From sequence record ON782582.1: 64,000 bases of DNA; one strand, written 5' to 3'. The position numbers were made by a program, and so were the translations under genes. This document shows, in pieces, positions 49,283 to 50,568 of this stretch (position 1 is its first letter; each line of letters opens with the position of its first letter). The notes under the pieces were generated by a model. It was not told the origin of the DNA. It was given only the letters and a program-made list of their open reading frames with translations, and ran no database searches. This DNA comes from Escherichia phage ECP52.

Positions 49283-49612
49283 ATGAACAAGTTAGAAATT
49301 GTTAATGAACTTCGTCGTTGCGCAGAACCCACTCAAGAGGGTTGGGACATCTGGTATCATGGAGCTTATCTTGGAACTATCGTAAAGATTAAGACTGGTA
49401 AATACATGATTATTCGTGAAAGTAAAGATGCTCCAGTAGGTATTCGCAATAATTTTATGGCAGCGATAAGTTCATTTACGGATGCAGCTTACGAAATTTA
49501 CCTTGCTGATTATAAAGAATTCCAGGAATCTCAACCGGTTATTCGTTCAATTGGTGTTAACAAAGCTCAACAGAAAACTTTGTGGCAACGTATTAAAGGA
49601 TGGTTTAAATGA
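49283..49612 (+). CDS. hypothetical protein (109 aa)
   Basis: GAGGAATAAATA RBS then ATG. Confidence 0.45.
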
Positions 49613-50070
49613 AAACTTTTAAAGAACGTTTAGCTCTGTTAGATAAAGCTTTGTTACGTGAGACTCCGGAAAGTCTGGCTGCTAAATTAGCTTCTTACGG
49701 CGGTGAATATACAGAACAAAATGTTTTAGATGAAGTTCCTGAAATCTGTTGGCAGACTGCATATTGGGATGAAAATCAAAAGTATCAACGACGAATTGTC
49801 TGTGCAGCCAACCGTTTTAAATTAAAAGATGGACGAACTCTTATTATTCCAGGTGCTCGTCATTATTCTAAAGATATGGCAGAAGTTTTAGATGTAGTTA
49901 AACCTCAATTAGTTACTCAACAAGTTTGTGATGATGACCAAGGGTTTATTGACCAATATAGTAATTATTGGACACGTGAAGAAGCAATGATTATTGCAAC
50001 TTACGCTGGACAAGTACGTATTGAACGTGGTGGTAGTGAAAAAGAACTTTACTCTGAGGACCTTTACTAA
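49609..50070 (+). CDS. hypothetical protein (153 aa)
   Basis: ATGA-coupled ORF. Confidence 0.45.
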
Positions 50071-50366
50071 TGAATATTAAAAAGTTTCAAATCGATGGAA
50101 TTATGAATCAAATCCAGGCACTAGAATATGCCAATAAAATGATGTCAACTAATTGGGGAATTTATGCCAATGAACCGGCATTTCAGTTCTGTGATATGGA
50201 ATTCACTAAAAAGCTCGTAGGAAAAGATTATGTATGCCCATTTAGTTCTCCGGTAAATGGAATGCTAAAACCTGCTTTACGCGATCTTTATATTGCGATG
50301 AACGAAGAAATGATAAAAGAATTAAAACGTCAACTGAAGGTGATTCAATTTGGCCAGGGAAATTAA
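50070..50366 (+). CDS. hypothetical protein (98 aa)
   Basis: Coupled ORF. Confidence 0.45.
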   Translation: MNIKKFQIDGIMNQIQALEYANKMMSTNWGIYANEPAFQFCDMEFTKKLVGKDYVCPFSSPVNGMLKPALRDLYIAMNEEMIKELKRQLKVIQFGQGN

Positions 50367-50568
50367 TTCAAAATCTGACTATTTTAATTCTCTCAATGAT
50401 AAAGATAAAAATCTAATAAGGCATTTTATTGTTGAGATGGGATATACTGATACACGTGATTTAAGAGAACATATATTTGAATGTGGTGTAGCTAAAAAGT
50501 TTTCATTCACATGCAAATGTTTAAGAGAGGTAATTCAGCATTATGAACAATTTAGTCGCAAAACATAA
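50350..50568 (+). CDS. hypothetical protein (about 72 aa; TTG start, uncertain)
   Basis: Open frame with non-ATG start. Confidence 0.25.
   Translation: MAREINSKSDYFNSLNDKDKNLIRHFIVEMGYTDTRDLREHIFECGVAKKFSFTCKCLREVIQHYEQFSRKT

Follow-up and report, generated by a model that had tools for sequence, protein, structure and literature searches.

A run of four small genes between motA and arn in Escherichia phage ECP52, occupying positions 49,283 to 50,568 of a 64,000-nucleotide (nt) stretch of sequence record ON782582.1 (here termed the window), includes one, arn.3, whose product begins with a 30-residue helical module that sequence comparison shows to be a homologue of the CmdA N-terminus, CmdA being the antitoxin of a bacterial anti-phage defence system. 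The window derives from a T4-like phage of the genus Tequatrovirus, and its four genes are almost certainly the orthologues of arn.4 and arn.3 and of arn.2 and arn.1, already catalogued in T4. A previous reading of this DNA, made from the sequence only, had delimited four tightly coupled open reading frames (ORFs) of 109, 153, 98 and about 72 amino acids (aa), with coordinates and lengths that agree exactly with the ORF list; it described them as uncharacterised, the long-annotated T4 genes having gone unrecognised, and as lacking obvious motifs, which is inexact for the second of them. The module in Arn.3 provides the first sequence-based tie of any arn.N protein to a specific host defence, and neither of the two CmdTAC papers cited here makes mention of a phage homologue (PMC9519451, PMC11618068). 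Our tentatively favoured explanation is that the genes form an accessory operon of small host-acting proteins, within which Arn.3 would dock to a CmdT-family toxin.

Briefly, T-even phages are restricted by PD-T4-9, or CmdTAC (Vassallo et al. 2022 and 2024), an abortive infection system made up of toxin, antitoxin and chaperone and carried by a P2-like prophage (PMC9519451, PMC11618068). When Arn.3 was compared with the 5027 defence-protein models of PADLOC, its sole match was PD-T4-9_B, with residues 1-30 of Arn.3 (49609-49698, plus strand) aligned to positions 1-30 of the 77 in the model (E 3.5e-8, 32 bits). The same model is the only PADLOC match in each of seven more sequences, namely five phage Arn.3 alleles, a protein fragment from the Klebsiella Jedunavirus HF1013 and CmdA itself. 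Direct comparison of Arn.3 with CmdA by BLASTP aligns the two proteins from Met1 of both, with 17 of 32 residues identical (E 7e-9), a score attained by none of 5000 composition-preserving shuffles (z = 14; shuffle z-scores were 8-15 overall). The AlphaFold2 (AF2) model of Arn.3 places helices at residues 4-16 and 20-29, giving the module the form of a two-helix hairpin, and CmdA too is predicted to have two helices at its N-terminus (PMC11618068). As far as sequence can establish it, the homology is solid, and no other protein in the window carries a CmdA-like module.

To obtain the CmdA sequence used here, the beginning of cmdA was pieced together from primers listed in the supplement of the Nature paper, and E. 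coli genomes were then searched with blastn. The ECOR22-type cmdA start is rare, being present in 3 of 5426 complete E. coli genomes. In E. coli N2250, positions 1922-3135 hold a full cmdTAC operon within the variable region of a P2-like prophage, with replication endonuclease and DinI-like genes on one side of it and the portal gene on the other. The proteins recovered are CmdT (192 aa), CmdA (77 aa) and CmdC (129 aa), and this CmdA matches PD-T4-9_B from end to end (E 3e-38).

Within the phages the module is hypervariable and, judged by alignment, behaves as a sharply bounded, swapped cassette. Comparison of the window with T4, T2 and Bas37 gives 60% DNA identity over arn.3 codons 1-34 (48% at the amino acid level for T4) and 96-99% on both flanks. 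At least four N-terminal alleles of Arn.3 occur among nine Tequatroviruses. PADLOC scores run from 16 bits for the T4 allele, the least CmdA-like, to 37 bits for that of JS98, the most.

We consider it probable that arn.4 to arn.1 have a host-directed accessory role. Like arn, they would encode small proteins that are made before late gene expression and act on host components, their targets lying outside phage replication and assembly. In the favoured explanation, the helical module of Arn.3 would dock onto the partner of the CmdA N-terminus, presumed to be a CmdT-family mRNA ADP-ribosyltransferase, and Arn.3 would serve either as a degradation-resistant antitoxin surrogate or as a carrier that delivers its second domain, T4_Y16D (hereafter Y16D), to the toxin; replacement of the module between near-identical phages would then amount to matching to different toxin alleles. 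Taken separately, the proposal that Arn.3 acts at CmdT-family toxins must be called doubtful, and its most specific form, in which Arn.3 is a degron-less CmdA surrogate with swappable helices matched to toxin variants and a Y16D domain that inhibits the toxin or undoes its modification of RNA, is unlikely. Were that form true, the unusual Arn.3 alleles of phages Bas35 and Bas38 would explain the escape of both from CmdTAC.

The escape itself is documented in the Nature CmdTAC paper, where 12 BASEL Tevenvirinae were plated on cmdTAC cells and only Bas35 (efficiency of plating, EOP, 0.85) and Bas38 (EOP 0.32) escaped. In each of these two phages the arn cluster is atypical and the N-terminal allele of Arn.3 is unique to that phage, a coincidence that is suggestive. 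Several observations nevertheless weigh against docking to the toxin. Bas36 (Paracelsus) has an Arn.3 N-terminus identical to that of the window over the first 50 residues, with 100% DNA identity over codons 1-45, and it plates at 5e-6 on cmdTAC cells, a 2e5-fold restriction (Nature CmdTAC paper); T4, T2, Bas37, Bas39, Bas40 and Bas44 are likewise restricted. Similarity to CmdA does not agree in rank with resistance, the window allele scoring 32 bits and being sensitive and the Bas35 allele scoring 27 bits and being resistant, and the mutations by which T4 escapes lie in alt.-3, not in arn.3 (published CmdTAC work). The correlation between Arn.3 allele and plating on CmdTAC is thus imperfect and is not used here as support. 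Because Bas36 is still restricted with an identical N-terminal region, the window allele is expected to fail against ECOR22 CmdTAC, and the Bas36 result therefore argues against an anti-CmdTAC role for this allele where the ECOR22 toxin is concerned.

Other points on the same side come from the surroundings and distribution of the module. No CmdT- or CmdC-like partner was found near arn.3 with hhalign, the Arn.3 family was not among the PHROGs matched by CmdA, and the 5' patch of arn.3 has no DNA-level similarity to complete E. coli genomes, leaving no trace of recent exchange. An unrelated 320-aa protein (phrog_11133) of Klebsiella Jedunavirus HF1013, encoded at 2198-3160 between helicase and exonuclease genes, also contains the module, internally, at about residues 101-134 (PADLOC E 1.4e-9), and on this ground the module may be a generic portable helical element. 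Two further candidate relationships, Arn.4 as a SecB-like protein and the Arn.3 core as a toxin-like one, were tried and rejected, with hhalign probabilities of 0.1% for both Arn.4 with CmdC and Arn.3 with CmdT.

It is a real possibility that the CmdA-like segment is a mere portable helical hairpin, a dimerisation or adaptor element for example, that has nothing to do with CmdT, and that the activity of Arn.3 resides in Y16D, which would bind or modify a nucleotide, a nucleic acid or a host protein common to many bacteria. Besides the Jedunavirus protein and the sensitivity of Bas36, this reading is favoured by the absence of the module from many Tevenvirinae Arn.3 proteins (the Q7622, PG7 and CC31 types) and by the properties of Y16D given below. 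Set against it are the selectivity of the module for CmdA among all the defence-protein models, the N-terminus to N-terminus alignment of Arn.3 with CmdA, the specificity of CmdTAC for T-even phages, and the sharply bounded replacement of alleles, a pattern more to be expected at a conflict interface than in a structural element.

Y16D (Pfam PF26092) starts at about residue 45 of Arn.3 (49741-50070, plus strand), with its best-conserved core at about residues 57-153. In an alignment of 36 homologues the N-terminus of Arn.3 is variable and this C-terminal domain is strongly conserved, with R61, A66, A67, R84, H85, Q111, G112, F113, D115, R123 and Q135 invariant and a nearly invariant C-terminus, LYSEDLY. 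The invariant R, H, Q, D and R residues suggest a ligand-binding or catalytic site in the domain, in keeping with its being the active part of the protein. A profile of the core retrieved 3577 clusters at E<=1e-3 from 1.8 billion cluster representatives, on diverse phage contigs; many are stand-alone proteins of 85-110 aa, and some are fused to long regions that lack Pfam matches. In the genomic contexts examined, a 206-kb contig among them, small genes on one strand are arrayed in the manner typical of phage early regions. Ten long fusion proteins and ten short stand-alone members were scanned against Pfam without an informative domain being found, and the neighbourhoods of distant members hold only unannotated small phage genes, which are uninformative.

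The AF2 model of Arn.3 is confident (predicted local distance difference test score, pLDDT, 87.8; above 90 in the Y16D fold region), and the domain has no match to a solved fold. Foldseek searches of BFVD with the model returned uncharacterised phage proteins together with three proteins named for a 'large polyvalent protein associated domain', with E-values of 2e-3 to 8e-2 and query-normalised TM-scores of 0.35-0.37; no sequence match to a Pfam LPD family accompanied these. Large polyvalent proteins of phages are regarded as conflict proteins. Y16D is, in sum, a very large phage family with conserved polar residues and a novel structure, for which T4 offers a tractable point of entry. The sequence-only reading had recommended profile searches and structure prediction, and the latter gave this confident model; the former, run with single sequences and profiles of all four proteins against Pfam-A, NCBIfam and PDB, gave nothing usable. 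Arn.4 is a small alpha/beta protein whose overall shape is one often seen in inhibitor and immunity proteins, Arn.2 belongs to a narrow family (23 clusters, mostly more than 90% identical), and Arn.1 has no detectable relatives beyond its own family. None of these three offers a mechanistic handle.

That the four ORFs are genuine genes and not chance reading frames is clear from their PHROG matches and from their protein- and DNA-level matches across phage records. All four fall into PHROG families without known function (E 1e-39 to 1e-73). Protein searches over phage records found arn.4 in 997 and arn.1 in 807, the protein database holds homologues of arn.3 and arn.2, and the 1,380-nt block matched 1,054 records at the DNA level. 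The wider 2.7-kb segment, motA through asiA, shares 98% identity with Escherichia phages EO1 and PE37 and matched 802 phage records. All on the plus strand, motA (48637-49272) is followed by arn.4 (49283-49612; 109 aa, ATG start; Pfam PF26821, phrog_1594), arn.3 (49609-50070; 153 aa, ATG), arn.2 (50070-50366; 98 aa, ATG; Pfam PF26819, phrog_1844) and the long form of arn.1 (50350-50568; 72 aa, TTG; phrog_4452), where the Pfam identifiers of the first three proteins, including PF26092 for Arn.3, are precomputed assignments in the protein database. The T4 accessions are NP_049872 (arn.4), NP_049871 (arn.3), NP_049870 (arn.2) and NP_049869 (arn.1), and motA.-1 and motA.-2 are older names. As genes, these are ordinary 'conserved hypothetical' ORFs of the T4 catalogue; what is new here is the CmdA-like cassette, the size of the Y16D family and its novel structure, two start-codon corrections and an additional 39-aa ORF.

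The additional ORF (50543-50662, plus strand), overlooked when four ORFs were counted between motA and arn, encodes a very basic protein (Pfam DUF7230, E 1.2e-11; phrog_1359) and overlaps arn.1 at its 3' end and arn at its start. The ORF is found in Mosigvirus, JS98, Q7622, PEi26, CC31 and T2, and it is annotated in T2 and absent from the T4 RefSeq record.

The start-codon corrections concern arn.4 and arn.1. Homologues of Arn.4 span all 109 residues, residues 1-41 being the best conserved, and T4 DNA holds an intact 109-aa arn.4 ORF where the T4 RefSeq model (NC_000866) has 68 aa (locus positions 4128-4334). For arn.1, the T4 RefSeq model (locus 3175-3306) and that of T2 both have 43 aa, equivalent to a start at ATG 50437 of the window, and with this annotation, and with TTG being a rare start codon, it could be argued that some ORFs are translated otherwise than drawn, the 72-aa frame being an artefact of mechanical ORF calling and the 43-aa ATG form the only one made. 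We regard this as very improbable. A 71-aa Arn.1 query was covered to at least 80% in 802 of 807 matched phage records, at identities down to 47%, and the 29 upstream codons are the best-conserved portion across genera, with YFNS invariant and DYFNSLN nearly so. The equivalent start is ATG or GTG in all of five divergent phages, namely Mosigvirus Shf125875, PEi26, CC31 and two Klebsiella phages; in the last four of these, Met30, from which the T4 and T2 models begin, is replaced by Leu, and the short form of Arn.1 is therefore impossible there. In the window, T4 and T2 the TTG lies 7 nt downstream of a strong Shine-Dalgarno sequence, GAAGGTGA. The arn.1-like ORF is unannotated in the records of PEi26 and CC31. 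On this comparative sequence evidence the T4 reference models of both genes, and the T2 model of arn.1, are truncated at their 5' ends, and the conserved forms are an Arn.4 of 109 aa and an Arn.1 of 72 aa with a TTG start.

The correction bears on a June 2026 preprint on T2, in which RNA sequencing showed arn.4-arn.3-arn.2-arn.1-arn to be a single abundant transcript, classed as middle, that the host small RNA ArcZ shields from RNase E by pairing with arn.2 at +285 to +294; a His-tagged Arn.2 product was detected, and the roles of Arn.1 to Arn.4 were stated to be unknown (bioRxiv 10.64898/2026.06.19.733364). Since the upstream Arn.1 reading frame is conserved, the '70-nt intergenic region' of that preprint encodes the N-terminus of Arn.1; a spacer treated there as non-coding is the most conserved part of the protein, and the constructs built on it need re-reading. 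The window holds the ArcZ-complementary decamer CCAGGGAAAT once, at 50354-50363 on the plus strand, corresponding to the arn.2 +285 to +294 site reported for T2, and it is the exact complement of nt 65-74 of E. coli ArcZ (AUUUCCCUGG; ArcZ sequence taken from MG1655). Folding of RNA duplexes with the whole ArcZ 3' fragment was uninformative, and only this exact 10-nt complement is retained. Besides lying at the 3' end of arn.2, the decamer occupies codons 2-5 in the long ORF of arn.1, just past the Shine-Dalgarno sequence of that ORF. Because the pairing site covers these codons, ArcZ may also influence arn.1 translation in addition to transcript stability.

The arrangement in the window is consistent with such a transcript, in that the four ORFs, the 39-aa ORF, arn and asiA.1 form an uninterrupted, translationally coupled block on one strand from motA to asiA. 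The junctions are an ATGA overlap between arn.4 and arn.3 and a TAATG overlap between arn.3 and arn.2, the start of arn.1 lies 17 nt ahead of the arn.2 stop, and the start/stop overlaps from this one onwards are -17, -26, -11 and -4 nt. The gene at 50652-50930 (plus strand), previously termed only arn-like, is the true arn (Pfam DM_Arn, PF22134, E 4e-54), and it is followed by asiA.1 and asiA (Pfam AsiA, E 1e-42). Two sigma-70-like promoters were recognised, one before motA (48567-48595, plus strand), which reads TTTACA-17-TACTAT and has a TG upstream, and one before asiA (51032-51060). Ahead of the motA promoter-like site, an orthologue of motA.1 (49 aa, hydrophobic) in the region 48359-48534 of the plus strand overlaps the end of gene 52, with a strong terminator-like hairpin (48513-48534, plus strand) directly at its 3' end. 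From this hairpin through the end of asiA no terminator-like site was found on the plus strand; nor was a consensus MotA box (WWTGCTTNA) on the plus strand between 48300 and 51500, or any Rfam family in the region.

Co-transcription with arn also bears on the possibility that arn.4 to arn.1 counter H-NS or McrBC or shield the phage's modified DNA, a role suggested by the 'anti-restriction nuclease' labels on these ORFs in many GenBank records. In T2, an arcZ mutation destabilises the whole transcript, and the resulting replication defect is suppressed by deletion of mcrC (bioRxiv 10.64898/2026.06.19.733364), which fits this possibility; Arn alone, however, accounts for the suppression. Moreover, arn is found without arn.1 or arn.2 in some genera, and the Arn family of DNA mimics does not match any of the four proteins: none of the four ORFs gave a hit at E<=1, and the only ORF to match DM_Arn was arn itself. 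The labels are a carry-over of the arn.N gene name, and an anti-restriction role for the four is improbable.

Comparison across Tevenvirinae shows arn.4 to arn.1 to be accessory genes whose content is shuffled between genera, and not core genes, because their presence and order differ among genera. All four are retained in Mosigvirus, arn.1 is missing from JS98 and Enterobacter phage Q7622, arn.2 is missing from Edwardsiella phage PEi26, and in Klebsiella phage phi1_146055 the order is changed, with arn.1 before arn.3. Bas35 (WilhelmHis) has an additional 51-aa ORF (phrog_15636) at 6841-6996 of its locus, on the minus strand, between arn.4 and arn.3. In Bas38 (AugustSocin; locus 1884-3220), identity to the window is 96-97% for motA, arn.4 and the core of arn.3, while the half from arn.2 to asiA is Mosigvirus-like (46-81% identity to the window), which marks a recombination junction near the point where arn.3 meets arn.2. 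The 61.8-kb 'complete genome' of Klebsiella phage SAKp28 (PP660556) contains motA-arn.4-arn.3-arn.2 twice, the two copies forming a head-to-head inverted repeat at 1282-5084 that is probably an assembly artefact.

High amino acid conservation inside Tequatrovirus might suggest instead that arn.4 to arn.1 are housekeeping genes required for the phage cycle, but these genes do not occupy the same place in every genus, additional ORFs are inserted among them and none of the four proteins matches an enzyme or structural family, and such a role is highly unlikely. The sequence-only reading had proposed just this comparison of presence and absence across T-even phages, and the variation found in content and order rules out the conserved housekeeping core that would have spoken against it. 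Its broader suggestion that the genes are candidates for host-interaction or anti-defence functions is borne out in so far as they are accessory, are co-transcribed in T2 with the McrBC inhibitor gene arn and include one with a CmdA-like module; for the window allele, the plating results speak against an anti-CmdTAC role in the simplest form, and any such function is a prediction made from sequence. Further along the window, the minus strand carries at 52067-52870 a glycine-rich gp38 adhesin gene of the T2/T6 type, which stands out by its G+C content (0.53-0.56, with about 0.35 around it).

Set beside known systems, the locus is closest to that of T4, with which it shares full-length homology and the order of genes between motA and arn, a synteny that extends to T2. 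DNA identity to T4 is 96-97% away from the 5' patch of arn.3, and amino acid identity is 98.6-99% for arn.4 and arn.1; the differences are that the first 34 codons of arn.3 are another allele and that the T4 RefSeq models of arn.4 and arn.1 are shorter than the conserved reading frames. With Arn, the DNA mimic that inhibits McrBC, the four proteins share a transcript and membership of the same class of small pre-late proteins, but not the DM_Arn family.

The logic proposed for Arn.3, that of a stable stand-in for a labile host antitoxin, is the same as that of known phage antitoxin surrogates. T4 Dmd counters RnlA and LsoA, T4 TifA counters ToxN, and phage phiTE produces pseudo-ToxI. We know of no sequence similarity between Dmd or TifA and the antitoxins that they replace, whereas for Arn.3 a similarity to the antitoxin is the sole evidence that would place it in this company. 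With CmdA itself, Arn.3 has in common the N-terminal 30 residues (53% identity) and the same predicted pair of helices at the extreme N-terminus. Beyond these the two proteins part: CmdA is host-encoded, continues into a long unstructured chaperone-addiction tail that bears a ClpXP degron (LAA), and adjoins an ADP-ribosyltransferase toxin and a SecB-like chaperone, whereas Arn.3 is phage-encoded, has arn.4 and arn.2 as its neighbours, ends in EDLY and carries, in place of the tail, the folded Y16D domain of about 110 aa.

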